Positions 2,001-56,539 are shown, counted from the first letter of the stretch. The stretch: 64,000 nucleotides of DNA from Nannocystis pusilla (GCF_051105105.1 NZ_CP185339.1), one strand, 5' to 3'. The notes: generated from the letters alone by a model not told the origin. A program made the numbers and translations.

Positions 2001-2031
2001 CCGCGAGAACATGCCCCTCGTGACATGCCCC

Positions 2032-2285
2032 TTCAGCCATCGGCGGTGGATCGCCCGCCCTTCGGCTGCCCGAACGAGCAGGTCCCGAAGGCCATGCGCG
2101 CCAGCTCGCGCCCGTAGTCAGCGGCGGTGCCTCGCCCGCCCTTCGGCCGCCCGAACGAGCTTGTCCCGCAGGCCATGCGGCGCCAGCTCGCGCCCGTGGT
2201 CACCGGCGGCGGCTCGCTCGCACTTGGGTTGCCCGAACGAGCATGTCTCTCAGGACATGCCCCGAGCGCCAGCCCGGCGCCGTCC
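2032..2285. repeat. about 83-bp tandem repeat x3 (plus partial 4th) in convergent intergenic region, each unit carrying a GTCCCG.AGGCCATG / GGACATGCCCC REP-like core
   Basis: Units start near 2032, 2115 and 2198. Each begins with a copy of the last ~20 nt of the amidohydrolase gene (ccggcggtggatcg.cccgccc), so the array arose by duplication of the gene 3' end plus terminator region. Confidence 0.7.
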
Positions 2286-4352: not shown

Positions 4353-5656
4353 TTGACCGGCGCGGTCGTCTGGGCCGACGAGCGCGGCGAGGTCACGCGC
4401 AAGCTGCTGCTGCAGGTCCAGCAGGACTCGCACCTCGGCCTGCTGCACCGCGACGGCCGCGGCAACCTCCTCTCGCTGGCGCGCCGCGGCAAGCAGCTGT
4501 TCGTCGCCACGCTGGAGCCGACCGGCCTCCGCTTCGCCGGGCCGGCCGCCGAGGTCGACGAATTTCAGCTCGGCCGCCGCCACGGACGGCCTGGTCGCCC
4601 GCGTGAACGACAACCAGGTGATGTACCTCGGCCAGGACGCCGCGGTGCGCTTCACCCAGGAGCTGCCGAAGGGCGCCGTTCGGGCCGCGCATGTGTCCCC
4701 GCCGTCGTACGAGCCGCGGGTCACCCGCGACGGCAGCGCGCTGATCCTCGGCCTCTCGGACCAGCGGGCCGCCGAGCTGCGCTCGACCACCGGCGCCGTG
4801 CTGGCGCGCGCCGACAATTTTTCGGGCTACTTCGCCGGCGCCCTCGCGCTCGGGCAGGACGCCGCGCTGGTGTGGTTCCGCGGCGACGCGTTCCGGATGA
4901 CCGCCGCCGGCAGCGAGCAACTGCCGCTGAAGCTCCTCGACGCCGCGCCGATCGAGCGCACCGGCGGCGCCTTCGCCCTGGTCCGCACCGAGGAGGACCT
5001 CGGCCGCCTGATCGAGCCTCGACGCCGAGGGCCGCGAGCTCGCCGAGCTCGCCACGCTCGCCGCCGACGACGTCGGCAGCACCAGCGCCCTGTTCGTCAG
5101 CCAGGACGGCTCGCTGTTCACGGCCGCGGTCTACGACTCCAAACACGGCGAGCACGTCCCGCGCTGCTGGCTGCGCGAGGGCGCGACCTTCCGCGCCTTC
5201 CCGGCCCCGTGGGGCAGCCACGACTGGCCCTGCATCTCGGCCGACGGCCGACGCGCCGCCTGGCAGTCGCGCGACGGCGACTGCTGGGTCCTCCACCACA
5301 CGCACGACGGCCGCGAGCTCGCCCGGATCTCGCTGAAGGACGCCTGGCTCGGCGAGTTCGACGGCGCCGGCCGCCTGGTGCTGAAGAGCCAGGACCGACT
5401 CCACTGGTTCGACGCCGACGGCGAGCCGCTCGCCGAGGTCGCCCTGCCCGGCAAAGAGCGGATCTCGCCGCCGGTCACGCGCCTGCTCGCCACCGGGGGC
5501 ATGCTCGACATGCTCGCAGTGACGCCGCTCGGTTCCTTCGCCCTCGGCGCCACGGGCGATCCGGCCCCGCTCGCCCACCCGGCCGCGCTGGCCGCCACCG
5601 ACTCGCGGGTGGCCATCGGCCGCGGCTGGCCGCTGGAGGTCACCGACCTCCGCTGA
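4353..5656 (+). pseudogene. hypothetical protein gene interrupted by two 1-nt frameshifts (about 4575 and 5028)
   Basis: Three consecutive protein-like segments sit in frames 0 (4353-4570), 1 (4575-5030) and 2 (5030-5656; ...LKSQDRLHWFDADGEPL...). Each ORF turns into Arg/Pro-rich junk right after the junction. No recognisable domain. Confidence 0.45.
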
Positions 5657-5692
5657 GCCGGCGCGCGGGGCATCCGGCCGCGCTGCTGGCGT

Positions 5693-5770
5693 CGTGAACA
5701 TGCCCTAAAAAACATGTTCCATGTGACATGTCCGCAAAGGCATGCCCTGATGAACATGCCCTCTCGAACA
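5693..5770. repeat. cluster of five REP-like palindromic cores (RNCATGYCC) between convergent genes
   Basis: gaacatgccc / aacatgttcc / tgacatgtcc / aggcatgccc / gaacatgccc lie within about 75 bp between the 3' ends of the 4353..5656 gene and the dienelactone hydrolase gene. Confidence 0.7.
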
Positions 5771-5771
5771 G

Positions 5772-6608
5772 TCACGCCGCCGGCAGCAGCTTGCGCCGCA
5801 GCAGGTCGAGCACCTGCTGCAGCGCCGCGTGCGTCGGCTCGCCTGGCGCGTCGACGAGTCCGCCGGTCAGCACCGAGTGGTGTTTTTTCAAGATCTCCTC
5901 CGGATGGCCGTCGCGCTGCTCGAGCTCGACCGCGACGAAGCCATCGCCGAGGCGCTCGCGCAGGAACGCGAACCGCTCCGGCGGCACCAGCGGGTCGCCG
6001 TGGAAGCGCAGGCCGAGCACCTGCAGGCCCTCGCGCACGCACCGACCGGCGACCGTGGCCAGCTCCTCGGGCCCGCAGTCGATGCTCCGCCGCTGGCGCG
6101 CGGTCAGCCCGAGCGGCAGCGACGGCTGCGACAGCACCGGCACCAGCACCCGCGGCTCGGTCGCCATCGCCAGCGCGAAGCCCCCCGTGAAGCACATCCC
6201 GACCGCGCCCACGCCCGGCCCGCCGCAGCGCGCGTGCTCGTGGACCGCGAGCGCGCGCAGCCAGTCGACCACCGGCGAGCTGCGCCCGGTCGCCAGCATC
6301 GTGAACTCGCGGCTGACGCACACCTCGGCCAGCACCTTGACCGCGCCGCGCAGCCTTGCGAGCGGCCGCGCCCTGGCGGCGTCGAAGCCCGGGGTCCCGA
6401 ACAGCTGCGGCAGCGCCACCGACAGGCCGAGCGCCACCAGCCGGTCGGCGAACCCGAGCACCTGCGGCGAGATGCCCGGCATCTCGGTGATCACGAGGAC
6501 CGCCGGCCCCGCGCCCTTGCGGTACACCGGGTGCGTCACCCCGGCGTGGGTGAACGCCTCGCAGGTGAAGGTGCTCAGGTCGCCCTCGGGAGCCTTCGGT
6601 TTGGCCAT
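5772..6608 (-). CDS. dienelactone hydrolase family protein
   Basis: Start MAKPKAPEGDLSTFTCEAFTHAGVTHPVYRKG at 6608. The Cys nucleophile motif (VGMCFTGGFA) and overall alpha/beta-hydrolase DLH layout are present. Confidence 0.75.
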   Translation of the reverse strand: MAKPKAPEGDLSTFTCEAFTHAGVTHPVYRKGAGPAVLVITEMPGISPQVLGFADRLVALGLSVALPQLFGTPGFDAARARPLARLRGAVKVLAEVCVSREFTMLATGRSSPVVDWLRALAVHEHARCGGPGVGAVGMCFTGGFALAMATEPRVLVPVLSQPSLPLGLTARQRRSIDCGPEELATVAGRCVREGLQVLGLRFHGDPLVPPERFAFLRERLGDGFVAVELEQRDGHPEEILKKHHSVLTGGLVDAPGEPTHAALQQVLDLLRRKLLPAA

Positions 6609-6921
6609 GTCGTCTCCTGCGCCGCATGATGCCCGCGCACGTCGGCCCTGCGCCAGCCGGGCCTGCGCGAGACGACCCGCGCCGCAGCGACATGTCCCTT
6701 CGGACATATCACCCGCCCGTCGCGCTCGCCCGCGACCGGACGGCGTACCGTCCGCCCCGGCTCAGCCTCTCGACGAGCCGAGCGCCCCCGGCGGCCGAGG
6801 AAATCCGTCGACCGGCGGACGCACCGACCGGGCGCGCCCGCGATGAGCCCCGCGCCCGCCGGGGTCGGGCGAACGGACGCGACACCGAAGGATCGGCGTC
6901 GCTCGAGCCCTCAACCGCGGC

Positions 6922-8823: not shown

Positions 8824-9931
8824 TCACATCCCGAGGGCCACCGCGCTGGCCTCGACCGTCGCCCGCGTGACCGCGGCCGCGAAGTCGAGGTCCAGGTTGG
8901 CGACCTCGTCGGGGCCGGCCATGCAATGATAATTGGCGTAGCGGAACTCGCTGGTGTCCGTCAGGAACACCGCCGGATAGCCCGCGTCCCAGAACGGCGC
9001 GTGATCGGAGCGCCGCAGGTCGGCGAACAGATCCGACGTCTCCTGACCCCCGGGCAGCTCGATCAGCGCCCGGCGCAGGCCGATGCGGTCGGCCGCCGCC
9101 GCGTAGGCGGCCGCGTGCGCGTTCGCCTTGGCGCTGCTCATGACGGCGATGAAGTCGCCGCGGAACTGGTTGGCCTCGAGCTCGGCGTAGGCCTCGGAGA
9201 ACACCAGCTCGAACCCGGCCGGCACCGTCTGGCTGTTCTCGGCGGCCGACGTGAAGGCGATCATGTCGAAGTTGAAGTCGACCACGATGTCGTCGCCGGC
9301 CGCCTTGGCCGCCGCCACGTACGCCTCGGAGCCGATGAGCCCGTCCTCCTCCTCGTCCCAGCAGGCCACGTGGACCGTGCGGTCGAAGTCCGCCTTGGCC
9401 AAAAGCCGCGCGATCTCGAGGGTCGCCGCCACCCCGCTGGCGTTGTCGTCGGCGCCGCGGCAATCGGAGATGTGATCGTAGTGCGCCGCGACCACCACGA
9501 TCTGCTCCGGCGTCGTCTTGCCGAGCCGCCGCCCGACCACGTTCACCCCGGTGCCGTAATCCATCAACACGACCTGGTAACCGAGCCTCGCTCAGGCGAT
9601 CGGCGCACAGGTCCTGCACCGCCTGCCAGTGCGGCGTCCCCGGCGTGCGCACGTCGGCGATGAATTGCAGGTCCTCGGCGTACGCCGCCGGGTCGATGCA
9701 ATCGGCCAGCGCTTGCGGCGACGCCGTGCACGGGTCAGGCTCGCCGGTGGTCGGCTCGGCCGTCGTGCTGCTGGTGGTCGGCGCGGCCGTCGTGCCGCCG
9801 CCGGTCGTCGTCGTCGTCGCCTCGCCCCCGGTCGTCGAGCCCGTCGGCGTCGTCGCGTTCCCGCCCGTCTGCCCACAACCGAGGCCACACACGAGCACGA
9901 GCCAGGAGATCCGCCGCAGGTCGTTCATCAT
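8824..9931 (-). CDS. M28 family metallopeptidase lipoprotein (1-nt frameshift near 9580)
   Basis: N-terminus MMNDLRRISWLVLVCGLGC plus Thr-rich linker plus M28 N-terminal region sits in one frame (part of track ORF 8759..10171). The catalytic core with HYDHISDCRGADDNASGVAATLE and SDHAPFW sits in ORF 8824..9570. They join with one indel. Confidence 0.7.
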
Positions 9932-14777: not shown

Positions 14778-15782
<1,005 letters not shown>

Positions 15783-15787
15783 TCCTC

Positions 15788-16534
15788 ATGTCCACCGCCA
15801 ACCTCGCCGCCGATCACTACGAGCTGTACTACTGGCCGGGCATCCCCGGCCGCGGCGAGTTCGTGCGCCTCGTGTGCGAGGACGCCGGCGCGCCCTACCT
15901 CGACGTCGCCCGCCGGCCCGCCGCGGACGGCGGCGGCGAGGCGGCCATCGTCCGCGCGCTCGAGTCGCTGCCCGGCCTGCCCGCCTTCGCCCCGCCGATC
16001 CTCCGCGCCGGCGAGCTGGTGATCGCCCAGACCGCCAACATCTGCGGCTTCCTCGGCGATCGCCACGACCTGTCCCCGGGGACAGAGGGCGGCCGCGCCG
16101 AGGCCATGCAGCTGCAGCTCACCGTCTCCGACCTCGTCGCCGAGGTCCACGACACGCACCACCCGATCTCCACCGCCCAGTACTACGAGGAGCAGCGCGA
16201 CGCCGCCGAGCTGCGGGCGACCGGCTTCCGCGAGCAGCGGCTGCCGAAGTTCCTCGCCTACTTCGACCGCGTCCTGCAGCGCAGCGGCGGCCCGTGGCTG
16301 CTCGGCGACGCCTGCAGCCACGCCGACCTGTCGCTCTTCCAAGCCCTGCTCGGCCTCGAGTACGCGTTCCCGCGCGCGTTCGCCCGCCAGGCCCGCCGCG
16401 TCCCCGCGCTGCTGCGCCTGCGCGACCGCGTCGCCGAGCGCCCGCGGATCGCAGCCTACCTCGCCTCGCCGCGCCGGCTGGCCTTCAACGAGAACGGCAT
16501 CTTCCGCCGCTACCCCGAGCTCGACCCGGTCTGA
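15788..16534 (+). CDS. glutathione S-transferase family protein
   Basis: YELYYWPGIPGRGEFVRLV thioredoxin-like N-domain and a helical C-domain. It is coupled to the upstream LLM gene (stop and start 5 nt apart). Confidence 0.8.
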   Translation: MSTANLAADHYELYYWPGIPGRGEFVRLVCEDAGAPYLDVARRPAADGGGEAAIVRALESLPGLPAFAPPILRAGELVIAQTANICGFLGDRHDLSPGTEGGRAEAMQLQLTVSDLVAEVHDTHHPISTAQYYEEQRDAAELRATGFREQRLPKFLAYFDRVLQRSGGPWLLGDACSHADLSLFQALLGLEYAFPRAFARQARRVPALLRLRDRVAERPRIAAYLASPRRLAFNENGIFRRYPELDPV

Positions 16535-16546
16535 GCGCCGCGGCCC

Positions 16547-16645
16547 GATAGCATGTCCTTCGGGACATGGCCAGGGAGACATTTAGAACCGGCGCCGGGA
16601 GCGACCCCGACGCGCGTTCTTCAGGACATGTCCCGTGAGACATCC
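16547..16645. repeat. two REP-like palindromic elements (ATGTCCTTCGGGACATGG... and CAGGACATGTCCCGTGAGACATCC) between convergent genes
   Basis: GGACATGTCC cores lie at about 16560 and about 16624, between the GST 3' end and the 16725..17445 gene 3' end. Confidence 0.7.
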
Positions 16646-16724
16646 CCGCGCCGAGGCGCGGGCTCGCCGGCCCCCGGCGCGAGCGCAGAAAGCGGCGCGG
16701 GTCCGTCGTCGTTCCGCGCGCCCG

Positions 16725-18608: not shown

Positions 18609-18642
18609 GACGATATGTCTTCACGGACATGTCCTTTTCGCC
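18609..18642. repeat. REP-like element (gacgatATGTCttcacGGACATGTCCttttcgcc)
   Basis: Same GGACATGTCC core family, in an intergenic position. Confidence 0.6.
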
Positions 18643-18771
18643 ATGTCATGCCCGCGCTCCGGCCCGGACGTGAGACGCGGGCCGAGGCTCTCCCGCGCGC
18701 GAACACCGGTCCGCCCGCCGCCTGCACCCCGCTTCCTGGGCCCCCGCCTCGCCTCGTATCATTCGCGGCGC

Positions 18772-19893: not shown

Positions 19894-20554
19894 CCGCCCG
19901 CGGCGCCTCCGCCTCGGGGTCCCAGGTCGGCCGCCGGCCTGGCGCTCCGGACATGTCCTTCAGACCAGGCTCATCCCGCGGCACCAGCGCGACCCGCAGC
20001 AGCTGCAGCTCGCCGCGGTGCGCCGCGAGGAAGCGGACCAGGCGGTCGAAGCGGCGGTGATCGCCCCCCTGCCGCGACCACGGCACGTCGACCCGCAGCG
20101 TCGCCGGCCCCGTCCACGCCAGCCGCGCGTCGGGCTCGACCAGTCGCACCGCCGCCACCGCGAGCTCGCTCGGCCGGCGCAGCACCAGCTCGATCTTGCC
20201 GAACCACACCGCGCCGTGCAGCAGCCACGGCTTCAAATCGCCGACCGGCACCGGGTAGCGGGCGATCCGGCGCCGCAGCCAGCCATCGGCCGGGACCTCG
20301 CGGTCGACCGCGCTGCGGGCCAGCGCGACCACGTTCCACAGCAGGAACGCCGCGAACAGCTGCGGCACCATCGCCACGCCGCACACGACCGCGGTGAACA
20401 CCCCCGCCACGCGCGCGGCGCCCCAGAACTCGTGCGGCGGCCCCGGTTCGGACCAGGCCGGCAGCCCCTCCCGCAGCGCCCGCTCGAGCGCCGTCTCGAC
20501 GAAGCTGCGATACGGCTCGCGGGCGACGGGGGGCTGTCCTTCGAGCGCACGCAT
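19841..20554 (-). CDS. membrane protein, hypothetical (co-directional downstream of RING-TerD gene)
   Basis: Two predicted TM helices (VAGVFTAVVCGVAMVPQLFAAFLLWNVVAL). The C-terminal 50 codons overlap the epimerase gene end and a REP-like element (GLKDMSGAP), so the true stop may lie earlier. Confidence 0.4.
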   Translation of the reverse strand: MRALEGQPPVAREPYRSFVETALERALREGLPAWSEPGPPHEFWGAARVAGVFTAVVCGVAMVPQLFAAFLLWNVVALARSAVDREVPADGWLRRRIARYPVPVGDLKPWLLHGAVWFGKIELVLRRPSELAVAAVRLVEPDARLAWTGPATLRVDVPWSRQGGDHRRFDRLVRFLAAHRGELQLLRVALVPRDEPGLKDMSGAPGRRPTWDPEAEAPRAVSRARASRPAPSPPARG

Positions 20555-24086: not shown

Positions 24087-24219
24087 ATCACATGTCCTCA
24101 CGGACATGTCCCGATTATCACCCGTCGCGCGCCCGCCCTACGGGCTCACGCTCACGCACCTGTCCGCCGGGACACCCCACCACCGCCTCGACCTGTCCCG
24201 CAGGACATGTCGCGGGTCC
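24084..24219. repeat. two REP-like elements between convergent genes (CACATGTCCTCACGGACATGTCCCG and CCTGTCCCGCAGGACATGTCGCGGGTCC)
   Basis: GGACATGTCC cores lie at about 24101 and about 24203. Confidence 0.7.
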
Positions 24220-26493: not shown

Positions 26494-26793
26494 GTGTCCT
26501 CCCTCGGGGTTACCCGGTCGCGTCACGCGATTGGGGGCACTTTGCGTCCGCCAGACGTGCTCGCGGTATAGTCAATCCGCGGCGCGCCCGCAACTCGCCG
26601 CAGCGAACGGTCGTCGGCCCGCCCGTGCGCCGCGTCACGCCGCGCGCCGCGCGAAGCGCCGGCCCGCGGGGCATGTCTCTTCGGCCAGCTCATCGGATAC
26701 GGCGTCGATCGTCGTCGCGGACATCCACCCGCGCGCGCAGCCCAAACCTGTCCGCGAGGACATGCAGCCAGCGAGCCGCGCGCAGCGTCGGCC

Positions 26794-27927: not shown

Positions 27928-28284
27928 TGACGCCACGATACCCGAAAGGGCGCACCTCGGCGCCCGATCCTCGTCCCTCTCGTCCGCGTCACGCGGTCAC
28001 GATCGCGCCGACCGGAGCGAACGCCTCCGATTCGCCCCGATTCGGGCGTCCCCCGGGTCCGTGGTCCGCCTGGCGGCGGGCGCCTCGCGGGGGCATCCAC
28101 GGGTCTGCCGACGCGAAGACGACGACCGGGCGTCAGGCCGCGAAGGCGCGAAGGACCGATTCGCAGTAGTGCGAATCGATCCTCGCGCGTCGCTTCTCTG
28201 TCACCTCCGCGGGTCACGCCGCGGGGCCGCAGCGGTCGCTACGGTCGCAGCGCGCGCGGCCGCGGCCGTGCGCGCCGTCGCGGG

Positions 28285-29544
28285 TCACATCCCGCCGCCG
28301 GCCGCTTGCATGAGCTGCTCCACCTCGGCGTAGCGGACCACGCCGGCCACGGTGGTGTCCTTCTTCTTCATCGGCCGCCACACGAAGTCGGGGTGGCGGC
28401 GCTTCGACTTGCCGACCCACTCGCCGCCGATGACGCGGCCGACCCCGTCGAGCTCGATGATGTAGTCGTAGACCTCGGTGAACGTGAAGGTCGCCAGGTT
28501 GTCGACCAGCTGCTGGTTGAACCCCGGGCCCGCCTCGTTGATCCAGTACACCTCGGTGCGGACGCGCCGCAGCTCGACCGCGTCCGGGTTGAAGCGGTAC
28601 TGCGAGCCGCCGCTGCTGATCATGTCGTTCGCGGTCGCGCCCGACACCTCCTCGTTGCGCGTCACCTTGTAGCCGACCACCGGGTGGTTCCAGACCTCGC
28701 GGTCGTAGGTGCGGTCGAACACGAACGACTCGCCGCGGAGCCCGAGCATATTGGTCAGCGCCACGTGGAAGCTGCCGGCGTTGGTGTCCTGGCACGCCTG
28801 GCTCTTGATGCTGCCCGTCGTGTTGCAGCGCAGCGACATGAAGCGGACCGACAGGCCCTCGGTGTACGTCAGGCTGATGAGCGCCTTGAGGTCGGAGATC
28901 TCGAAGCGCACCCCGTTGTACGTGATGCCCTGCTGGGGCTCGCGCTCCATGATGGCCGCCGGCGCCCACGCGTGGCAGATGCCCATCCACGTCTCGATGC
29001 AGCGGCCGCGCGACTCGCCGCGCCGACGGCCGCACACGCGGCCCCCCACGTTGGAGCAGTCGGAGTCGTACCTGCACGCCTTCGTGCCGCCGATGCTGCC
29101 GACGCCGAAGCGGTTGGAGATGACCGCCCCGACCCCCTTGCGGCCGAACGCGGCCCCGTACTTCTCGGCCGGCGAGCGGATCTTCGAGCCCGCCCAGCGG
29201 TAGTTGATCGAGTCGTTGTAGGTCGGCCAGTAGTAGCCCGGCCACGGCACGCGCTCCGCCCAGCCCGACTCGGGCAGCTCGTCGAGATCGAAGTTGAAGT
29301 CCTTGCTGAGGAGGCGGGGATCGTCCGCCTTCGTCCACCCCTCGCGGTAGAGCAACGCCTCTTCCTGCTCCTCGGTGAGCGCCGGCTCCTCTCCCTCGTC
29401 CGCGGCGAGCTCGTCGGTCTCTTCGACCGGCTCGTCACAGGCGGACAGCCCCGAGCAGAGCATGCCCAGCGCCAGCGCGGCGCGGAAGGTGAGACGGCCC
29501 GCGAGACGACTCGCGGAGGATGAGGATGGAATCGTGAATGACAT
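28285..29544 (-). CDS. lipoprotein of the transglutaminase-elicitor (GP42 TGase-like) family
   Basis: Lipobox LGMLCSGLSAC. VWNHPVVGYKV closely matches the Pep-13 epitope (VWNQPVRGFKV) of oomycete GP42 transglutaminase. A candidate Cys nucleophile lies in WMGICHAWAPAA. Confidence 0.7.
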   Translation of the reverse strand: MSFTIPSSSSASRLAGRLTFRAALALGMLCSGLSACDEPVEETDELAADEGEEPALTEEQEEALLYREGWTKADDPRLLSKDFNFDLDELPESGWAERVPWPGYYWPTYNDSINYRWAGSKIRSPAEKYGAAFGRKGVGAVISNRFGVGSIGGTKACRYDSDCSNVGGRVCGRRRGESRGRCIETWMGICHAWAPAAIMEREPQQGITYNGVRFEISDLKALISLTYTEGLSVRFMSLRCNTTGSIKSQACQDTNAGSFHVALTNMLGLRGESFVFDRTYDREVWNHPVVGYKVTRNEEVSGATANDMISSGGSQYRFNPDAVELRRVRTEVYWINEAGPGFNQQLVDNLATFTFTEVYDYIIELDGVGRVIGGEWVGKSKRRHPDFVWRPMKKKDTTVAGVVRYAEVEQLMQAAGGGM

Positions 29545-30017
29545 GAAACACCTCGAAAATGGTCTGACCGATTCGCACGTTCTCCGTCGTCGTCAGCGGC
29601 AGGATCGCCGCTGGGTCCTCGGGAGCGACATCGAGGCGGAGCGGTCGTCACGCAGCGTCGAACGACAGCCTCGCATGATTCTCCTCTCGTCTCGTGGCGA
29701 GAGCCCGCCGGAGCGGTCCCCTGCGTGAGCGCGATTCACTGGACCGACGCATCGATCCGGACAATGACGGCAGTGCGACGAAGTCTGCGTCGGCTCGCCG
29801 AGACGACAGGCGAGGACGGCGGGACATGGGTCGCACGGAGGAGACCGGCGGGAGTTCCATCCAGTCGAGGTCAGCGTGACGGTCGCCGGTGAGGGTTCGA
29901 CGGGCCGCGAGGTCAAGGTCCCCGCGGGGGTCGTCGCCGAGTCGTGAGAGCGCGCTCGATCTGCCGCTCGAGCGCTGCGCCGGGGCGCGTGGACTCGGGT
30001 GAATGGGTCAGAGGTCC

Positions 30018-30074
30018 AGCGGCGAGGTCCTCGCCGCTCGCAGCGGAGCGCTCGAGGGGCCTCGAGCGCTCCGC
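30018..30074. terminator. two adjacent GC-rich palindromes downstream of the 30137..31430 gene
   Basis: AGCGGCGAGGTCCTCGCCGCT sits at about 30018-30038 and GCGGAGCGCTCGAGGGGCCTCGAGCGCTCCGC at about 30043-30074. There is no U-tract, so terminator function is speculative. Confidence 0.25.
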
Positions 30075-30136
30075 TTCAGGCGGGGCCGGCGTGCGCGATC
30101 GTCAGGCGATCATCCTGCCGGTCCGCCGTGGTCGGC

Positions 30137-31430
<1,294 letters not shown>

Positions 31431-32029
31431 GGGAGGGTTTCCTTTCTCTGTCTCGAAAGCAGCCGGCGGGTCAATCCCGCCTGAGCTCTTCCGGACGAAC
31501 TATTGGTTGGTAGTCCCGGGTAGGCAAAGCTAAGGTGTGGTGAAGCGCAAAGGAGGACGGCGCCCCATTCTGCGACACCCCCCTCTACGAGGCCCTACAG
31601 CCGCGAATTTCAGGGAATTGCCGGGGTCCCGCGAGCCCGGCGGGGCGCGCGGAGAACCGCTCGAACAGGCGTTATTTCCGGTCGCTGCGGCCGCCTCGCC
31701 CACTGCTATCAATGTCGTCCGCCTGCCGCGGCCGTCCGCCGCGCCGGAGTCGTCCGCGCCTGCGCGATATCGAATGCCATCAGGCGATCGATGGGCGCGA
31801 AAATGACAGTACATCACCGCCGCGATCCATCTGACAGCGCACCGAACATTTCCGCGACCGGGCGGCGGTATGGCCAATGGCTCACCGAAACGTCGCAGCG
31901 GCCCGCCCGCGCGAACCACCGCGCGCCGCCCGTTTCCGCCGCGCGCCTGGGCGGCGCGCCTAAAGCGTCCGCTCGTCGTCCGCTCTCCGCCGGCCCGTGC
32001 GACCGCCCGGACACGTCAGGTCGGCGGCC

Positions 32030-41091: not shown

Positions 41092-43195
41092 ATGCCGACC
41101 TCGCACCGCGTCTGTCTCCTCCTCCTCGCCGCTGCTGCCTGCGACGCTCCGCCGTCGAAGGACGCGCCGAAGGTCGCCACGATCCAGGCCAAGCGCGCCC
41201 TACCGGCGGACAAGGCCGACGCCGCGCCCGCCGACGACAAGGCGCGCGACGGCAAGTCCGACGCCCCGCCCGTCATCGTCGCGGGCCCGCCTGCGTCGGA
41301 CGACATCGTCAACATGCCTGACAGCTTGACCGCGGAGAACATCCCGCCGATCCCGCGGGCCATCGCCGACGGCGTCGGCACCTACTCCGAGGCGCGCTCG
41401 GCCGCCGCGCTCGAGTGGCACCCCAAGGATCACTCGCTGCTGATCCGCACCCGCTTCGCCGAAGCGCCCCAGATCCACGAGGTCAAGATGGCGGGCGGCG
41501 ATCGCCGCCAGCTCACCTTCTTCAACGACAGCGTCGGCGGGGCCATCTATCCGCCGGTCGGCGACGGCAGCTTCTTCGTGTTGTCGAAGGACATCGGCGG
41601 CAACGAGTTCGCGCAGAACTGGCGCTTCGATCGCGCCGACGGCAAGCTCACCCTCCTCACCGACGGCGCCTCGAAGAACAGCCTCGGCCCGTGGACCCGC
41701 GGCGGCGAGAAGTTCGCCTACACCTCGACCCGGCGCAACAAGAAGGACACCGACTTCTACGTCGTCGACCCGCGCGACCCGACCACCGACAAGCTGGTCG
41801 CCGAGGTCGAGGGCGGCGGCTGGTCGCCCGCGGACTTCTCCGCCGACGGCAACCAGATCCTCGCGGAGGAGTACGTCTCGGTCAACGAGAGCTACCTGTG
41901 GCTGTTCGACCTGGCCACCGGCCAGCGCACCAAGCTGACCGAAAAGACCGGCGACGTGCCGGTCGTCTGGTCGGGCGCCAGCTTCACCGCCGACGGCAAG
42001 GGCGTCATCACCACCACCGACGGCAAGGGCGAGTTCCGCGAGCTCGTCACCCTCGACCTCGCCACCAAGCAGACCAGCCCGCTCGGCCCGCCGGTGCAGT
42101 GGGACGTCGAGAGCTTCGCCATCAGCCACGACCGCAAGAAGCTGGCCTCGATCGTCAACGAGGCCGGCGTCGATCGCCTGCGGCTGCACGACCTGCCGAG
42201 CGGGCGCGAGCGGCCGATCAAGACCCGCCTGCCGGCCGGCACCATCGGCGGCCTCAACTTCCACCCCGACGGCAAGCTGCTGGCCTTCAGCCTGTCGTCG
42301 GCGCGCTCGCCCGCCGACACCTACGTGCTCGAACGTCCAGAGCGGCGTCATCGAGCGCTGGACCGAGAGCGAGGTCGGCACCCTCAACCCCGGCACCTTC
42401 AGCGAGCCCGAGCTGGTGAAGTGGAAGAGCTTCGACGACCGCGAGATCTCCGGCTTCTACTACAAGCCCCCGGCGCGGTTCGCCGGCAAGCGCCCGGTCG
42501 TCGTCATCGTCCACGGCGGGCCCGAGGGCCAGTCGCAGCCCGGCTTCATCGCCCGCAACAACTACTACCTCGACGAGCTCGGCGTCGCCCTGCTCTACCC
42601 CAACGTGCGCGGCTCGACCGGCTACGGCAAGACCTTCGTGAGGCTCGACAACGGCGCCAAGCGCGAGGACTCGGTCAAGGACCTCGGGGCCGCGCTCGAC
42701 TGGATCGCCAGCCAGCCCGATCTCGACGCCGATCGCATCATGATCATGGGCGGCTCGTACGGCGGCTACATGACCCTGGCCGCCTCGGTCCACTTCGCCG
42801 ACCGGATCCGCTGCGCCGTCGACATCGTCGGCATCAGCAACTTCGTCACCTTCCTCGAGAACACCGAGGCTTACCGCCGCGACCTCCGCCGCGTCGAGTA
42901 CGGCGACGAGCGCGACCCGGAGATGCGCAAGAAGCTGCTCGAGATCTCGCCCCTCACCCGCGCCGCCGAGATCAAGAAGCCGCTGTTCGTCATCCAAGGC
43001 AAGAACGACCCGCGCGTGCCGGCCAGCGAGGCGCACCAGATCGTCGCCACCCTCAAGCAGGGCGGCACGCCGGTGTGGTACCTCGAGGGCAAGGACGAGG
43101 GCCACGGCTTCCAGAAGAAGCGCAATCAGGACTACCAGATGTACGCCACGATCCTGTTCATGAAGAAGTTCCTGCTCGACGGGATGGGCGAATGA
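41092..43195 (+). CDS. S9 family prolyl oligopeptidase-type serine peptidase lipoprotein (1-nt frameshift near 42332)
   Basis: MPTSHRVCLLLLAAAAC lipobox and an N-terminal beta-propeller (TolB/PD40-like). The catalytic domain with GGSYGG nucleophile elbow is in ORF 42416..43195. They join at TYVLD/VQSGVIERW after removing one base in ctcgaacgtc. Confidence 0.75.
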
Positions 43196-44049
43196 GCGGC
43201 GACAACTCGCAGATGATCGCCGACTGGAACGGCCGCGTCGGCGAGGGCTGGCGCGTCCACCAGGAGCGGCTCGACGACATGATGGCCGCCTACGGCGAGG
43301 CCGTGCTGCGGGCCGCCGCGGCGCGCCCCGGCGAGCGCGTGCTCGACATCGGCTGCGGCGCCGGCGACACCGCGCTGGCCCTGGCGCGCGCGGTCCAGCC
43401 CGGCGGCGCGGTCGTCGGCGTCGACGTGTCCTCGCCCCTGCTCGAGCGCGCCCGCGAGCGGGCCGCCGCGGCGGGCCTCGACCTCGAGCTCCGCCACGCC
43501 GACGCCAGCGTCGCCGACCTCGGCCCCGGCGCCTACGACCTGCTGTTCTCGCGCTTCGGCGTGATGTTCTTCGCCGACCCGGTCGCCGCCTTCACCCACC
43601 TGCGGGCCGCGGCGCGCCCCGGCGCCCGCCTCGTGTTCGTGTGCTGGCGCGCGGCCGCCGACAACGACTGGGTCGTGCTGCCGCAACGAGCGCTGCGAGA
43701 CGTCGTCCCGCCGCTGCCGCCGCCCGACCCGGAGGCGCCCGGTCCGTTCTCGTTCGGCGCCCGCGAGCGGGTCGAGCGGATCCTCGGCGCCGCCGGCTTC
43801 CACGCCGTCTCGATCGCCCCGTTCGACGCCCCGCTGCGGTTCGGCCGCGGCGACACGCCCGAAGCCGCGGTCGACGACGCAGTCGCCCAGGCCCTCGACG
43901 TCGGCCCCGTCTCGCGCCTGCTCGCCGGCCAGCCCGACGACGTGCGCGCGCGCGGGCTCGCGGCGGTGCGCGCCGCCTTCGCCGCGCACGCCGGGCCGAC
44001 CGGGGTGATCATCCGCGGCGCCGCCTGGATCGTCACGGCGCAGGTCTGA
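43192..44049 (+). CDS. class I SAM-dependent methyltransferase
   Basis: ATGA start/stop overlap with the S9 peptidase gene. Motif I is VLDIGCGAGDTALAL. Confidence 0.75.
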   Translation: MSGDNSQMIADWNGRVGEGWRVHQERLDDMMAAYGEAVLRAAAARPGERVLDIGCGAGDTALALARAVQPGGAVVGVDVSSPLLERARERAAAAGLDLELRHADASVADLGPGAYDLLFSRFGVMFFADPVAAFTHLRAAARPGARLVFVCWRAAADNDWVVLPQRALRDVVPPLPPPDPEAPGPFSFGARERVERILGAAGFHAVSIAPFDAPLRFGRGDTPEAAVDDAVAQALDVGPVSRLLAGQPDDVRARGLAAVRAAFAAHAGPTGVIIRGAAWIVTAQV

Positions 44050-44057
44050 TCAAGAGT

Positions 44058-44083
44058 GAGACATGTCCTCGAGGACATGTCTC
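44058..44083. repeat. perfect 26-bp palindrome GAGACATGTCCTCGAGGACATGTCTC (REP-like) between convergent genes
   Basis: Self-complementary over the full length. It contains two GGACATGTC cores. Confidence 0.8.
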
Positions 44084-44092
44084 ACCATTGAC

Positions 44093-44674
44093 TCACACGC
44101 ACTGGTTGTTCTCGCAGCTCATCAGGTCCATGCAGTCCTTGGCGAACTCGCACGGGTCGAACTCGTTGCCGTCGTAGCACTTGCCGTACACGCAGTGCTT
44201 CGAGCCCTCGGCGCAGTCGGTGTCGGTCTTGCAGGGGTCGCCCTCGCTGCCGTCGTAGCAGGCGGCCATGATGCAGCGCGGCGCGGCGGCGCTGCACTCC
44301 TCGTGGAACTCGCACGGGTCGCCCTCGCTGCCGTCGTGGCACTCGCCGAACACGCAGAACGGCGCGGAGTCCGGGCAGTCGGCGATGAACTGGCACGCCT
44401 GCCCCTCGGTCTCCGCGGGCGGGGCGCCGGTGGTCATCTCGCCGGTGGTCGTCGCCGGCCCGGTCGTGCCCTCGCCGGTCGTCGACGTCGTCGGCACCGC
44501 GCTGGTCCCCGTGGTCGTGGTCGTGCTCGTGCCGGTGGTCGTGCCGGTCTCCATGATCGGCACCATCGGCCCCGGCTCGGTGTCGCCGTCGGTGACGGCC
44601 ACTCCTTGCTTCTCCTTCTCACCGCAGGACGCCGTGAGCGCCACGGCGAGGTACAGGACGACGTTGGCACGCAT
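44093..44674 (-). CDS. Cys-rich secreted lipoprotein with three CxDxxPFCVFGECHDGSEGDPCEF-type repeats
   Basis: Start at 44674 (MRANVVLYLAVALTASC lipobox). A Thr/Gly linker precedes three tandem about 38-aa Cys-rich repeats. Confidence 0.6.
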   Translation of the reverse strand: MRANVVLYLAVALTASCGEKEKQGVAVTDGDTEPGPMVPIMETGTTTGTSTTTTTGTSAVPTTSTTGEGTTGPATTTGEMTTGAPPAETEGQACQFIADCPDSAPFCVFGECHDGSEGDPCEFHEECSAAAPRCIMAACYDGSEGDPCKTDTDCAEGSKHCVYGKCYDGNEFDPCEFAKDCMDLMSCENNQCV

Positions 44675-44936
44675 GATCGATCGGAAAGATGGCGACGGTC
44701 GGCCGGGCGGCACCTCAATTTCCATTGATGTGACACGAACGACGTTCGTCGAGCGGAGCCCGCCAAACGGTCATCGGCGCGTCATTTCGGGAAAATTCGG
44801 CCGCGCCCGCGAGCGGCGGCGCGCCGTGATCGCGGCCACGGCCCCTGCCCACATTCGCGGTCAATGCATGCACTCGCCGCCCCCGCCCGCGGAGACTGCT
44901 CATGGGCGCGCCGCCCGAAGGGCGACCTGGCCTGGC

Positions 44937-52931: not shown

Positions 52932-54279
52932 TTGTCCCGCCCGAGCAAGCCGCGTCCGCCGCCGCCGCCTCCGCCTGCCTTGCGTCCGCCTGCAGCCGCG
53001 CTCGACACGCCGGCGCGCCCTGGCCCTGGCGACGGCCTCGCCCGCGCGCGGGCCCTCGAGCACACCGGCGACCACGCCCGCGCCGCCGCCCTGCGCCTCG
53101 AGTACGCCCACACCTTGTGCGGCACGGCCCAGCGGATCGCCCTCCTGCGCGAGGGCGCAGCGCGGCACTCCGGCGCCACCGAGGAGGGCCGCAGCCTCCA
53201 CCAGGCGCTCGCCGAGACCCTCCTGCGCCACGCCGAATTCATGGAAGACGGCGCCCCGCGGCGCGCGATCCTCATGGAAGCCGCGCGTGCGCTCGAGGAG
53301 GCCGACCAGGGCGCCATCGCCGGCGAGATCTACGAGCGCCTGCACATGCTGCGGCGCGCCGCCGTCGCCTACGAGCAGGCCGGCGCCGTCACCCAGCTCG
53401 AGTACGTGCTCGGCCTCATCGACCGCATCGAGCACGCCGAGGCCGTCCTCCAGCGCGCCAGCGACGAGATCGACGCCGCCCTGCGCGAGGGTCGGCGGTT
53501 CTTCGCCCATGGCCTGCTGCAGGAGCACCTGCAGGACGCGCGGACCACCCGCGGCCCGCTCGCCCACAGCGGCGCTCCGCTGCTGCGCGCCGCCCTCGCC
53601 CGCGTCCAGGCCGACCTCGGCGTCGCCCTCCCGCGCGGCCAGCGGGTCGACCTGCGCTGGGGGACAGGTCAGGTCACGCGCGTCGTCTTGCGGGCCGATC
53701 TGCGGCTCGGGCGCTCGCCCGACGTTCGAGCTCAGCCTCGGCGGCGCCAGCCTCTCGCGCGAGCACGCCGCCTTGCGGCTCGAGGCCATCGCCGCCGCCG
53801 CGGGCAGCAGCGCCCACGGCCTCGACGAGGTCGAGCTGGCCGTCGCCCTCGTCGACCTCGGCTCGCGCGCCGGCACCTTCTGGCGCGGCGAGACCCTCGC
53901 CCCCGGCGAGCCCGTCGCCCTCGAGGGCCCCGGCGAGCTCACCCTCGGCCTGTCCGCCGCTCGCATCGAGGTCCACCCGCTCCCGCGCGAGCGCGGCGAG
54001 CTCGGCGCCCTCCTGCGCCCGCAGGGCCAGGGCGCCGCTTCCCCGTGGACCCTCTACCTCCCCGGCGGCGGCCCCCTGTGGCTCGCCCCCGATCGCCCGA
54101 TCCCCGCCGTCCTCGAGCTACGCCCGCCCTTCATCGCCGTGCGGATCGCCGCCGGCGTGCGCGCCCAGCTCGGCCAGGAGCCGCTCGGCCCCGGCGCCAG
54201 CATCGAGCTCCTCCACGGCGACCGCCTCCACCTCGACCTGCCCGACGGCCGCCTGACGCTCGAGATCTCGATGACCTGA
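52932..54279 (+). CDS. FHA-domain protein with N-terminal helical domain (1-nt frameshift near 53700)
   Basis: TTG start. The N-terminal about 250 aa are helical in frame 0. The C-terminal FHA-like core (DLRLGRSP...FELSLGGASLSREHAALRLE...GSRAGTFWRGETL) continues in the 52786..54279 frame. Confidence 0.6.
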
Positions 54280-54282
54280 CCT

Positions 54283-54395
54283 TTCGGACCTGCCCCTCGG
54301 GACCTGCCCCTCCAGACCTGCCCCTCGGGACCTGCCCCTCGGGACCTGCCCCTCGGGACCTGCCCCTCCGGACCTGCCCTCTCGACCACTCCGCC
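54283..54395. repeat. 14-bp tandem repeat CTCGGGACCTGCCC x7 between FHA gene and Ser/Thr kinase gene
   Basis: Seven near-identical units with core GGACCTGCCC, related to the GGACATGTCC REP core. Confidence 0.8.
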
Positions 54396-54505: not shown

Positions 54506-55852
54506 ATGCCGATCGAGCCCCTCCGCGGCGACATCCGCGCCGATCCAGCCCTCGACCACCAGCTGCGGGCCGTCCTCTCGCGCCTCTCGGAGGGCGCCGA
54601 GCTGCCGCGCGAGCTGCCGGGCATCGCCGCGCTCGCGCGCCGGCTCGTCGAGGGCGCCCCGGCGCCGGAGATCGATCGCCAGATCCGCGACCTCAGCCAC
54701 GCCGGCTACGTCCGCGGCGCGCTCGTCAGCCTCGCCGCCCACCTGCGTCTGCGGCCGCGGCCCGACCTCGTCCTCGTCCTCGCGCGCGAGCTGTGCGACG
54801 CCCTCGCGCCCGACCTCGGCGTCGAGCTCGCGCGCGCCGCCCTCGCCTTGCCCGAGGTCGAGGATAGCCGCTGGCAGCCGACCGGCGCCTACGCGGCCGC
54901 CAACCTCCTCCTCGGCGACACCCTCCTCGATCGCGGCGACCCGCTCGGCGCCCTGCGTCACTTCGAGGCCCTGCTAGCGATCGACATCGACCACGCCCGC
55001 GCCCTGCGCGGCTGGAGCACCGCCCAGCGCCGCCTCGGTCGCGGGGGCGCCCACGCCAGCCGCGGCCTCGCCCTGCTCGAGGGCCTCGACGCCACCGAGC
55101 TCGTCGCCGGCCTCGGCGTCGACCGCTACGAGCTCGGCCGCCCGCTCGGCCGCGGCCGCCACGCCGTCGTCTATCAGGCCTTCGACCGCCGCGTCGGCCG
55201 CGACGTCGCCATCAAGCGCCTGGTCGCCGAGGGCAGCGACGGCCGGCTCGTCAGCGCCCGCTTCTTCGCCGAGGCCCGCACCCTCGCCCGCGTACGCAGC
55301 CCGCACGTCATCGCCCTCCTCGACGTCCAGCCCGCGCACCGCTTCGTCGCGCTCGGCCTGTGCCGCGGCGGCAACCTGCGCGTCGCCGTGCGCAAGCGCC
55401 TGCTCGGCCCCGCCGACCTGCCGCGGGTCGGCGCCCAGATCGTCAGCGCCCTGCGGGCCGTGCACGCCGCCGGCGCCGTCCACCGCGACATCAAGCCGGC
55501 CAACATCCTCGTCCGCGAGGCCCGCGAGGGCTCGCCCGTGGCCCTCGCCGACTTCGGCCTCGCCCTCGCCGACCCGCGCTCCGGCAGCGGCCACGCCGGC
55601 ACCCTGCGCTACCTCGCCCCCGAGCTGCGCAGCCCCGGCCCGGCCGCCCGCGCCACCCCGGCCTCCGACCTCTTCAGCGCCGGCGTCGTCCTGCTCGAGC
55701 TCGCCCTCCACCCGCAGCCCCTCCCCGCCGTGTTCGACCAGATCGGCGCCGCCGCCTTCGACCCCGAAGAACATGTCCCGAAGGACCTGCCCGGCGGCTG
55801 GACCGATCGCCTCGTCCGCATGCTCGGCCCCGACCCCGCCGCCCGCGGCTGA
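54506..55852 (+). CDS. eukaryotic-type Ser/Thr protein kinase with N-terminal TPR-like region
   Basis: The kinase catalytic loop HRDIKPANIL, DFG and APE (LAPELRSPG) motifs lie in the C-terminal half. The N-terminal 200 aa are helical repeats. Confidence 0.8.
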   Translation: MPIEPLRGDIRADPALDHQLRAVLSRLSEGAELPRELPGIAALARRLVEGAPAPEIDRQIRDLSHAGYVRGALVSLAAHLRLRPRPDLVLVLARELCDALAPDLGVELARAALALPEVEDSRWQPTGAYAAANLLLGDTLLDRGDPLGALRHFEALLAIDIDHARALRGWSTAQRRLGRGGAHASRGLALLEGLDATELVAGLGVDRYELGRPLGRGRHAVVYQAFDRRVGRDVAIKRLVAEGSDGRLVSARFFAEARTLARVRSPHVIALLDVQPAHRFVALGLCRGGNLRVAVRKRLLGPADLPRVGAQIVSALRAVHAAGAVHRDIKPANILVREAREGSPVALADFGLALADPRSGSGHAGTLRYLAPELRSPGPAARATPASDLFSAGVVLLELALHPQPLPAVFDQIGAAAFDPEEHVPKDLPGGWTDRLVRMLGPDPAARG

Positions 55853-55909
55853 CATGGCCCTTCGCACATGTCCTCTCCGACCTTCCCCTTCGGACCTGTC
55901 CCTCGCACC

Positions 55910-56539
55910 ATGCCTCGCCTCGCCTCGCTCGCCCTGCTCCTCCTCGCCTGCGAGGAGCTGCCGCGCACCTACAGCAGCGCCGGCCCGGCCCAGCTGCTGT
56001 TCGCCGACCGCTTCGACGGCCCCGAGCTCGGCCCCTCGTGGAAGTCGACCGGCCCCGGCGCGCGCCTGGAGGGCGGCGAGCTCGTGACCGAGGGCCTGCG
56101 CAACCACCCGCTGTGGCTGACCCTGCCGCTGCCCGACAACGTGCGCGTCGAGTTCGACGCCCGCGCCGCCACCGACGAGGGTGACATCAAGGTCGAGCTC
56201 GCGGGCGACGGCAAGAGCTTCGCGCGCAGCGCCAGCTACACCGCCACCGGCTACGTCATCATCTTCGGCGGCTGGAACAACACCACCAGCGCGATCGTCC
56301 GCCGCGACGAGCACGGCGGCGATCGCAAGACCACCCAGTCGCTCAAGGTCGAGGCCGGCAAGCGCTACCACTTCGCCATCACCCGCCGCGACGGCGCGAT
56401 CCGCTGGGAGCTCGACGGTCAGGAGGTCCTCGCCTACGACGACCCCGAGCCGCTGACCGGCCCCGCCCAGCGCCACTTCGCCTTCGGCGGCTGGGAGGCC
56501 CGCGTCGCCTTCGACAACCTCGAGGTGTTCGCGCTGTGA
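55910..56539 (+). CDS. secreted lipoprotein, hypothetical (possible concanavalin/LamG-like fold)
   Basis: Internal ATG gives MPRLASLALLLLAC. The mature domain of about 190 aa is beta-rich. It is preceded by REP-like elements (ACATGTCCTCTCCG...TCGGACCTGTCCC). Confidence 0.55.
   Translation: MPRLASLALLLLACEELPRTYSSAGPAQLLFADRFDGPELGPSWKSTGPGARLEGGELVTEGLRNHPLWLTLPLPDNVRVEFDARAATDEGDIKVELAGDGKSFARSASYTATGYVIIFGGWNNTTSAIVRRDEHGGDRKTTQSLKVEAGKRYHFAITRRDGAIRWELDGQEVLAYDDPEPLTGPAQRHFAFGGWEARVAFDNLEVFAL

Follow-up and report, generated by a model that had tools for sequence, protein, structure and literature searches.

A REP-like family of paired palindromes concentrated at gene 3′ ends in Nannocystis

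Introduction

Between two convergent genes of Nannocystis pusilla, a 115-bp gap (from the end of a plus-strand gene at 5656 to the end of a minus-strand gene at 5772) is filled by degenerate copies of a short, CATG-centred palindrome. The question raised by this locus is what kind of repeat the palindromes represent and what keeps them at such sites. The first-pass annotation of the 64-kb stretch of N. pusilla DNA analysed here, hereafter the window, had likened them to the REP and BIME elements of enterobacteria, with a different core, and had not recognised the motif as a described element. Among known repeats of this kind, REPINs consist of two REPs that together make a hairpin; they are passed on vertically, persist for long, and are tied to single-copy RAYT transposases. 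Herein, we examine the unit of the repeat, its abundance and taxonomic range, its structure, its position relative to genes, and its evolution, and weigh the explanations that have been offered for comparable elements.

Results

Repeat unit and copies in the window

The exact core, GGACATGTCC, was present six times in the window against an expectation of 0.04, a count reached by none of 100 dinucleotide-preserving shuffles, and RGACATGTCY with at most one mismatch was found 22 times against 3.3 expected. The window has a G+C content of 72%; chance or composition as the cause was ruled out by the shuffles together with control palindromes of like make-up, which gave 0 to 11 occurrences versus 192. 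Tallied against GGACATGTCC, the window held 20 one-mismatch copies and 18 arrays (Table 1). When phased partners were included, these 18 arrays comprised at least 36 units, with a variant array in addition, in agreement with the earlier estimate of at least 25 copies, and each of the sites listed at that stage was found when read in the sequence. A search of the whole window against Rfam at the gathering threshold matched no family. A radical SAM protein encoded in the window matched one of N. pusilla, on a 12.2-Mb contig, at 100% identity, while exact entries for the window's TPR protein and for a further product (P0001) were absent from the assembly index.

Inspection of every CATG in the window placed the true repeat in a 14-bp register, made up of the 10-bp palindrome and a 4-nt spacer. 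The centres of close pairs of good units were 14 bp apart in 163 of 188 cases and 28 bp apart in a further 18. The CATG-centred 10-mer that had been described is a real palindrome, but the repeating unit is the 14-bp register and not the 10-mer alone; the accompanying remark that copies often occur as pairs or composites was borne out by the 14-bp partners and the multi-unit arrays.

Table 1. Units and arrays of the palindrome family in the window, by position
Position	Strand	Element	Context
2007..2030		Degenerate dimer GAACATGCCC-ctcg-TGACATGCCC	CATG centres 2010, 2024; directly after stop of plus-strand gene ending 2000
2239..2262		Dimer GAGCATGTCT-ctca-GGACATGCCC	CATG centres 2242, 2256; in third copy of local 82-bp tandem repeat, convergent gap
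5696..5761		Focal array, five 14-bp units GAACATGCCC, AAACATGTTC, TGACATGTCC, AGGCATGCCC, GAACATGCCC	CATG 5699, 5713, 5727, 5741, 5755
6688..6711		Dimer CGACATGTCC-cttc-GGACATATCA	Co-directional gap
16549..16572		Dimer TAGCATGTCC-ttcg-GGACATGGCC	CATG centres 16552, 16566; 15 nt past stop of GST-like gene 15779-16534
16624..16647		Dimer GGACATGTCC-cgtg-AGACATCCCC	Shares convergent gap with 16549..16572 dimer; whole gap folds with z -3.8
18611..18648		Three units CGATATGTCT / GGACATGTCC / CGCCATGTCA	CATG centres 18628, 18642; past stop at 18582
19949..19958		Exact core	Partner 19963-19972 (AGACCAGGCT) decayed to 5 mismatches
24088..24111		Dimer TCACATGTCC-tcac-GGACATGTCC	CATG centres 24091, 24105; begins 2 nt past stop at 24086, convergent gap
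24189..24212		Dimer CGACCTGTCC-cgca-GGACATGTCG	Opposite end of convergent gap of 24088..24111 dimer; next gene ends 24230
26669..26678		Degenerate unit GGGCATGTCT, 2 mismatches	Weakest among listed sites
36496..36519	+	Coding copy GGACATGTCC-ccga-GGACAGCACA, peptide SGHVPEDS	Radical SAM gene linker
36580..36603	+	Second coding copy, peptide SGHVSEDS	84 bp downstream of 36496 copy; local in-frame duplication
36894..36917	+	Coding dimer GGACATGTCT-tctg-CGACATGCCC, peptide DMSSATCPEG	CATG centres 36897, 36911; frame differs from GHV copies
38169..38192	+	Coding copy, peptide ADMSLWTG	TPR gene; conserved in N. bainbridge, N. punicea
38674..38711	+	Coding three-unit array DGHVLRRLSTRT	TPR gene; cores conserved in three Nannocystis species and MAG locus L125; spacers differ
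39266..39289		AGACATGTCC-ttca-CGCCATGCTC	CATG centres 39269, 39283; 3′ part of TPR gene; conserved in L121, L122
44056..44085		Perfect 30-nt palindrome GTGA-GACATGTCC-TCGA-GGACATGTC-TCAC	CATG centres 44062, 44076
54273..54395	+	Variant array GGACCTGCCCCTCG, at least 7.6 copies	Upstream of kinase start 54506
55769..55792	+	Coding dimer GAACATGTCC-cgaa-GGACCTGCCC, peptide EEHVPKDLP	Near kinase gene 3′ end
55850..55918		Four to five units TGACATGGCC, GCACATGTCC, CGACCTTCCC, GGACCTGTCC plus CATG unit 55909	CATG centres 55853 to 55909

The units of the focal array are degenerate, and one further CATG lies off register at 5720. The minus-strand gene that ends beside it is dienelactone-hydrolase-like. 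As RNA, the minus strand of the array gave two long, G:U-containing hairpins when folded (-55.6 kcal/mol, z -3.95), while the plus strand folded more weakly (-44.9 kcal/mol, z -2.2) and had a G+C-rich hairpin of its own at 5657-5690. The perfect 26-nt palindrome that had been reported at 44058-44083 is present and extends to 30 nt, filling most of the 43-nt gap between convergent genes at 43192-44049 (plus strand) and 44093-44725 (minus strand); the surrounding stretch, 44045-44097, had fold energies of -28.7 and -29.7 kcal/mol for its two strands, with z about -5.3. An array of seven 14-bp copies had likewise been noted at 54283-54395, and Tandem Repeats Finder (TRF) recovered it at 54273-54379 with period 14, 7.6 copies, and 90% matches. 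Here the unit is a variant without palindromic symmetry, GGACCTGCCC, and the array lacks structure (fold z +2.4). The array at 55850 overlaps the kinase stop codon (55850-55852). The window's tandem repeats of 82 bp and 71 bp are purely local and do not belong to the palindrome family.

Taxonomic range and abundance

A scan for the dimer GACATGTCC-N4-GGACATGTC over 185,579 species genomes matched at least 120 stretches. Among the 120 listed matches, 113 belonged to Nannocystis, to Nannocystaceae MAGs, or to one Myxococcales MAG, with Nannocystis represented by N. exedens, N. pusilla, N. punicea, N. bainbridge, N. radixulma, RBIL2, and MAGs; the remaining seven were single strays in unrelated taxa. 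These 120 loci had been chosen for a perfect dimer, and counts in the 863 kb of other Nannocystis DNA were taken with the seed matches masked. So counted, the exact core was present 58 times versus 0.7 expected, an approximately 80-fold excess, and copies with one mismatch or none 272 times versus 26 expected. No other word of equal length was as strongly over-represented in the genome sample as GGACATGTCC. The register recurred as well, core-like sites in the 863 kb being spaced 14 bp apart 292 times, 28 bp apart 40 times, and 42 bp apart 14 times, with hardly any spacings of 13 or 15 bp. The first-pass annotation had named confinement of the copies to this window as grounds for refutation; the counts outside the window show otherwise, and local duplication was ruled out as the origin of the family, the repeat being genus-wide.

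Exact cores occurred at 0.7-0.9 per 10 kb and units with at most one mismatch at about 3 per 10 kb in the Nannocystis sample, from which we estimate, by extrapolation, a few thousand copies per 12-Mb genome. In regions orthologous to the loci sampled, no unit with at most one mismatch was present in Enhygromyxa salina (16 kb) or in Nannocystaceae strain ST9 (22 kb), and a more Nannocystis-like MAG locus (L125) had seven. The repeat family therefore looks clade-specific to Nannocystis and its close relatives. A search of viral contigs for the motif returned one match only.

Hairpin architecture and covariation

A partner with at most four mismatches was located exactly 14 bp away from 181 of 199 intergenic and 84 of 113 coding units, where control offsets put chance at approximately 2-3, and single units were almost absent. 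The self-complementary core allows neighbouring units to pair, so that two of them make up a hairpin of 10 bp in the stem and 4 nt in the loop. Around 115 perfect dimers, conservation was confined to the 10-mer, with a weak preference for A/R before it and Y/T after it, giving a 14-bp palindromic unit with the consensus a-R-GGACATGTCC-Y-t. The loop was fixed at 4 nt in length and free in sequence; GNRA and UUCG loops were in slight excess only and without sense-strand bias. Position frequencies across the same 115 dimers revealed no conserved tetranucleotide beside the hairpin.

Outside the stem, the non-conserved flanks paired with each other, with standard pairs in 65%, 61%, and 56% of 112 independent dimers at the first three outer positions. 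In these dimers, 213 flank cells were changed on both sides versus 144 ± 12 after shuffling, a value reached in none of 500 shuffles, and a separate count of flank pairing agreed (267 versus 175 ± 11). The flank covariation score was 0.156 versus 0.096, and every slid register performed worse. Core variants, too, were compensated between units (111 versus 83 ± 8 shuffled), with symmetric compensation within units at 59. A perfect DNA palindrome running through the loop centre was not significantly enriched (16 versus 12.3 ± 3.3). Birth of the dimer by tandem duplication of a 14-mer was considered and rejected, the loop being unlike neighbouring spacers (190 versus 176 ± 11). Slippage was visible in a few young arrays only, namely the array at 54273 and the coding linker copies that lie 39, 54, or 84 bp apart.

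Position relative to genes and transcript-end features

On a home-made gene map (codon log-odds, 83% coding, with starts and some contexts approximate), units with one mismatch or none had a density of 2.9 per kb in convergent gaps, 0.94 per kb in co-directional gaps, and 0.5 per kb in divergent gaps, versus 0.14 per kb in coding DNA, with seeds masked throughout and the masked bases kept in the denominators for the three gap classes. Convergent gaps were thereby approximately 20 times as dense as coding DNA, in keeping with the enrichment that the first-pass annotation had proposed to check, and approximately 61% of these units fell in the approximately 17% of DNA called non-coding. In the window, such a unit was present in seven of 11 convergent and none of nine divergent gaps; nine of the 20 one-mismatch units were located between convergent genes and seven within called ORFs. 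Arrays lay a median of 48 nt from the stop codon facing them. It had been stated that most copies sit between convergent gene ends or upstream of starts. The former part stands, but proximity to starts appears mostly to be a by-product, as in 90 of 114 co-directional gaps the arrays lay nearer the upstream stop than the downstream start. The genes that flank the arrays were unrelated (dienelactone hydrolase, methyltransferase, GST, Coq4, TPR, kinase), and the idea of a regulon was discarded.

The hairpins are not followed by a U-tract, the eight downstream nucleotides having a mean of 1.5 T and four or more T in four of 55 cases, and a consensus terminator scan called no motif hairpin; the lack of a U-tract indicates that they are not canonical intrinsic terminators. 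Canonical hairpins with a T-run were themselves at chance level between 1 and 20 kb of the window (4 versus 3.7 expected), which makes other 3′-end signals plausible in this genome. Signs of action as RNA were mixed. Sense-strand mismatches in co-directional gaps were more often G:U than A:C (72 versus 49, p 0.045), while sense and antisense RNA had equal fold energies (-20.3 versus -20.5 kcal/mol), with the sense strand more stable in 41 of 88 cases. Because these tests disagree and stable tetraloops are barely enriched, the hairpin may instead have a role in single-stranded or cruciform DNA.

Evolution between and within genomes

Orthologous loci were available from N. bainbridge (L121) and N. 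punicea (L122), plus orthologous pairs among the loci from the scan. Between orthologous dimers, identity was 87% in stems, 69-74% in flanks, and 50% in loops. The hairpin at 44056-44085 exemplifies this pattern: the window has the outer stem GTGA...TCAC and the loop TCGA, forming the perfect 30-nt palindrome; a second N. pusilla (Na p29) has CGA...TCG and the loop GCCC, so that loop and flanks differ; N. punicea has other flanks again, with ATGATGA...AATCATT as the outer stem; and N. bainbridge has GGACATGACC-cgaa-GGTCATGTCC, in which the own symmetry of each unit is lost and the hairpin kept. Moreover, compensated variants were kept between species, among them GGCCATGTCC-N4-GGACATGGCC at two loci (L062 and L083). 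Constraint is thus on the structure and on the sequence of the inner stem, not on that of the loop.

Related species also differed in the presence or absence of the motif and in copy number. The dimer at 24088..24111 was retained in the N. bainbridge ortholog (L022) in a more decayed state, and the one at 24189..24212 was retained there too; L022 has, in addition, one extra dimer without a counterpart in the window. Identical loops were found in 1.75% of same-genome pairs versus 1.98% of between-genome pairs, that is, without an excess within genomes. No within-genome pair of dimers matched past the core, the best extended matches all being orthologs in other genomes. Hence, with neither loops nor flanks shared within a genome, nothing pointed to a larger element having been copied and pasted recently. 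Among 18 indels that contained the motif, none was a clean insertion with target duplication, the boundaries being messy and intergenic DNA too diverged; one 7-bp direct repeat was ambiguous.

Copies inside coding genes

Six of the seven one-mismatch units within ORFs of the window lie in solid ORFs, and the seventh, at 39266, falls in the 3′ part of the TPR gene, where the reading frame appears to be shifted in the window. The coding copies use three reading frames, giving the peptides GHV, DMS, and TC. Those in the radical SAM gene are located in a hypervariable linker, which has two to seven of the peptides SGHVPEDS or GHVPPAISS across Nannocystis species and is short, without the motif peptides, in Enhygromyxa, ST9, and a Nannocystaceae MAG. 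The spacings of the linker copies in DNA (39, 54, or 84 bp) are each divisible by three, in accord with local duplications that kept the frame. More distant relatives retain the second unit (EDMS) and not the first, and this retention suggests that the ancestral linker segment may have been a perfect dimer encoding GHVPEDMS.

Discussion

The palindromes constitute a family with a strict register, a biased distribution over genes, and a bounded taxonomic range, and selection acts on their structure and stem sequence. We consider it a Nannocystis-clade, REP-like hairpin family that is selected at gene 3′ ends and most likely provides two-way transcript-end hairpins, a reading to which we assign even odds (probability about 0.5). 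The working element would be two adjacent units, sometimes three to six, that pair into a hairpin with a conserved 10-bp inner stem, a 4-nt loop of free sequence, roughly 3-4 complementary outer pairs, and flanks that are slightly A-rich on the 5′ and T-rich on the 3′ side. Selection would keep such hairpins at gene 3′ ends, above all between convergent genes, where they would act from both sides, either as terminators independent of a U-tract or as barriers to 3′-to-5′ RNA decay, which REP hairpins are known to block in Escherichia coli. Local slippage would grow and shrink the arrays, and copies that land in tolerant coding linkers would be translated as peptide. That the role is at the RNA level, in termination or in RNA protection, is what we infer from position and structure; the enrichment at convergent ends could also reflect the sites where insertions harm least.

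A purely structural role leaves the invariant stem and the 4-nt loop unaccounted for, and the invariant, rather A+T-rich stem together with the fixed loop points to a putative factor that reads both sequence and geometry. One might therefore envisage a hairpin-specific protein, confined to the Nannocystis clade, that recognises stem and loop, being either a domesticated HUH/RAYT-like seeder or a new termination or RNA-decay factor, with the same process placing hairpins in genes, where they would be translated as expanding linker peptides. We put this forward as a tentative extension, possible though short of probable.

Whether the repeat is instead a REPIN-like selfish element, a non-autonomous hairpin that owes its copying to a transposase, whether a single-copy HUH (RAYT-like) enzyme or another kind, and that accumulates at 3′ ends where it does the least harm, seems doubtful to us, even though REPINs and RAYTs are described in just these terms, as hairpin doublets in high copy number that persist vertically and are mobilised by single-copy enzymes. 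Copied elements would naturally have a fixed loop length, would differ in presence and number between related species, and would turn up in coding linkers, here in three frames and always as dimers. Set against this are the loops, which are shared no more often within than between genomes, the lack of within-genome matches past the core, of a conserved tetranucleotide adjoining the hairpin, and of a clean target-duplicating insertion among the motif-containing indels, as well as the purifying and compensatory evolution of stems and flank pairing, which implies constraint at the level of the host. A tblastn search with IS200 TnpA and E. coli RAYT, approximate queries applied to the approximately 1.05 Mb sampled, a small part of each genome, retrieved nothing, and none of the 19 genes that have the motif at both ends encoded a Y1 transposase-like product, although this is a weak test. 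An origin of this sort could, in any case, coexist with a host function. An alternative that we regard as unlikely places recognition in double-stranded DNA, each 14-bp palindrome binding a dimeric protein (nucleoid-associated, gyrase-type, or a roadblock) and neighbouring units acting cooperatively. The palindromic 14-bp unit, the very strict register, and the fold energies without strand bias would suit such sites, and E. coli BIMEs bind gyrase and IHF. But units are almost never single, compensation between units exceeds that within them (111 versus 59), the N. bainbridge ortholog of the 30-nt palindrome gave up the symmetry of each unit and kept the hairpin, and complementary, non-conserved flanks are not predicted by double-stranded recognition.

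A DNA-uptake-like word, accumulated by biased transformation and accommodated as inverted pairs in terminators in the manner of the Neisseria DUS and Haemophilus USS, would likewise be short and conserved with free flanks and loops, kept at orthologous sites, present in several coding frames, and paired at gene ends. DUS and USS are mostly single copies, with inverted pairs in terminators, and are roughly ten times denser than the 0.7-0.9 exact copies per 10 kb found here; the near-absence of single units, the strict 14-bp spacing, and the strong intergenic bias also speak against this reading, we know of no palindromic uptake word, and we judge it highly improbable. The comparison nevertheless holds in that the Nannocystis core, like the DUS and the USS of Pasteurellaceae, is a genus-specific, over-represented 10-mer, often paired at gene ends and tolerated in coding DNA; it is unlike them in its palindromic core and fixed spacing. 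The cyanobacterial HIP1 is similarly a short, perfect palindrome and, as in our genome sample, the most over-represented word of its length, but HIP1 occurs as single sites throughout coding and non-coding DNA, whereas the Nannocystis motif comes in pairs set 14 bp apart and clusters at the 3′ ends of genes. Readings after the model of DUS/USS or of HIP1 both fail on the near-absence of single units and on distribution.

Among known kinds, the repeat comes closest to the RAYT-associated REP and REPIN elements of Enterobacteria and Pseudomonas, with which it shares short, high-copy, mostly extragenic palindromes, a hairpin doublet with conserved stem and variable centre, a location after gene ends and between convergent genes, and long-lasting vertical inheritance. 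Unlike these, its core is a self-complementary 10-mer, so that direct and inverted repeats are identical; the units stand head to tail in the strict register and leave a 4-nt loop; the hairpin, no more than 24-32 nt in all, has neither an asymmetric bulge nor a conserved flanking tetranucleotide; the genomes lack identical copies of the kind a master copy would leave; and the host is a myxobacterium. BIMEs alternate two types of unit with defined linkers, whereas the arrays here repeat one self-complementary unit with free 4-nt spacers. The initial REP/BIME comparison is accordingly apt for a dispersed, mostly extragenic family of paired hairpins at convergent ends, and does not extend to the tetranucleotide, to BIME alternation, or to shared loops and flanks. 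With intrinsic terminators and REP-type 3′ stabilisers the family has in common a stable, symmetric hairpin, a few to approximately 50 nt past the stop and usable from both sides. It differs in having no U-tract, no strand bias in RNA fold energy, and a stem sequence common to an estimated thousands of sites, which structure alone would not need.

The copies in proteins recall Rickettsia palindromic elements (RPEs), in that in-frame palindromic copies add peptide, here SGHVPEDS and GHVPPAISS in a radical SAM linker that outgroups have without them. RPEs are 100-150 bp; the Nannocystis copies, unlike them, measure 24-28 bp, are followed by local duplications of 39, 54, or 84 bp, and belong to a family that is mostly intergenic. 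The radical SAM linker clearly illustrates how a structured DNA repeat can be recruited into protein linkers.

As the first-pass annotation had surmised, the motif appears not to be a described element: the literature, including a review of myxobacterial genomics, gave no account of it or of REP-like repeats in Myxococcota, within an incomplete coverage. As far as the searchable literature shows, this is possibly the first REP-like repeat family described for Myxococcota, and its architecture is unusually minimal and symmetric. It bears on how transcript ends are marked in very GC-rich genomes without canonical terminators. Over the sampled regions the taxonomic boundary appears sharp, and the responsible factor can therefore be searched for by comparing repeat-bearing with repeat-free genomes. 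Artefacts of assembly and annotation are likely at these repeats, because the ATG in each core can pass for a start codon. In practice, the motif serves as a marker of the genus.

Divergence of hairpin loops and a viral dimer

The loops of orthologous dimers, in which two copies of the palindromic core form the stem and the 4-nt spacer the loop, were compared between the window and L051 (the locus of N. pusilla Na p29), between L018 and L099 and between L062 and L083 (other loci of the Nannocystis clade), and in further pairs. Loop identity was 50%, versus 69–74% for the surrounding intergenic DNA; that is, the loops change faster than the DNA around them. In two N. pusilla strains that are ~96% identical overall, 4/4 loop bases were different. 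This rapid divergence may reflect hypermutable loops or, alternatively, replacement of elements at the same site.

A single viral contig, L126 (IMGVR_UViG_3300005675_000065; G+C 66%), carried the dimer, at position 8920-8955, where it formed a perfect extended hairpin, CTCTC-GGACATGTCC-TCTC-GGACATGTCC-GAGAG. The contig may represent a phage or prophage with a Nannocystis-like host.

Start codons within the core

Every motif core contains an ATG (e.g., at 18643, 44063, 55868 and similar positions), so that ORFs in mechanically generated lists begin inside the repeat. The same ATGs could give rise to erroneous start-codon calls in annotations.

Other features of the window

Repeats, genes and compositionally distinct stretches in the window
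Feature	Position	Details
82-bp tandem repeat	2041-2313	3.3 copies; convergent gap
71-bp tandem repeat	32102-32399	4.3 copies, 86% matches; long gap, lower G+C
Repetitive ORF	30137-31147	minus strand; nested 12-, 24- and 153-bp repeats
TPR gene, apparently split	37435-39491	ORF 37435-39150, then 39132-39491 in a different frame
Class I methyltransferase gene	43192-44049	compared in L051, L121 (N. bainbridge) and L122 (N. punicea)
Lower-G+C stretches	28000-32000, 40000-44000	G+C 0.68 versus 0.72-0.77

Each copy of the 82-bp tandem repeat enclosed a degenerate motif pair, and this repeat was not detected in the other fetched loci; the 71-bp repeat was likewise seen in the window only. The nested repeats of the repetitive ORF imply a highly repetitive predicted protein. 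Within this ORF, GCCCATGTCC matches the motif with two mismatches, and these matches look coincidental.

The lower-G+C stretches, in parts of which (29.5–32.9 kb and 39.5–42.4 kb) our codon log-odds model placed few or zero genes, may be foreign or atypical DNA. For the TPR gene, the N. bainbridge and N. punicea orthologs are each one undivided gene of 685 aa and the window is 1 nt short of both in the DNA alignment, which together suggest a frameshift or sequencing error. The methyltransferase gene is shared by the window and N. punicea, but N. pusilla Na p29 and N. bainbridge lack it at this position; the indel junction falls right at the 44056-44085 hairpin.
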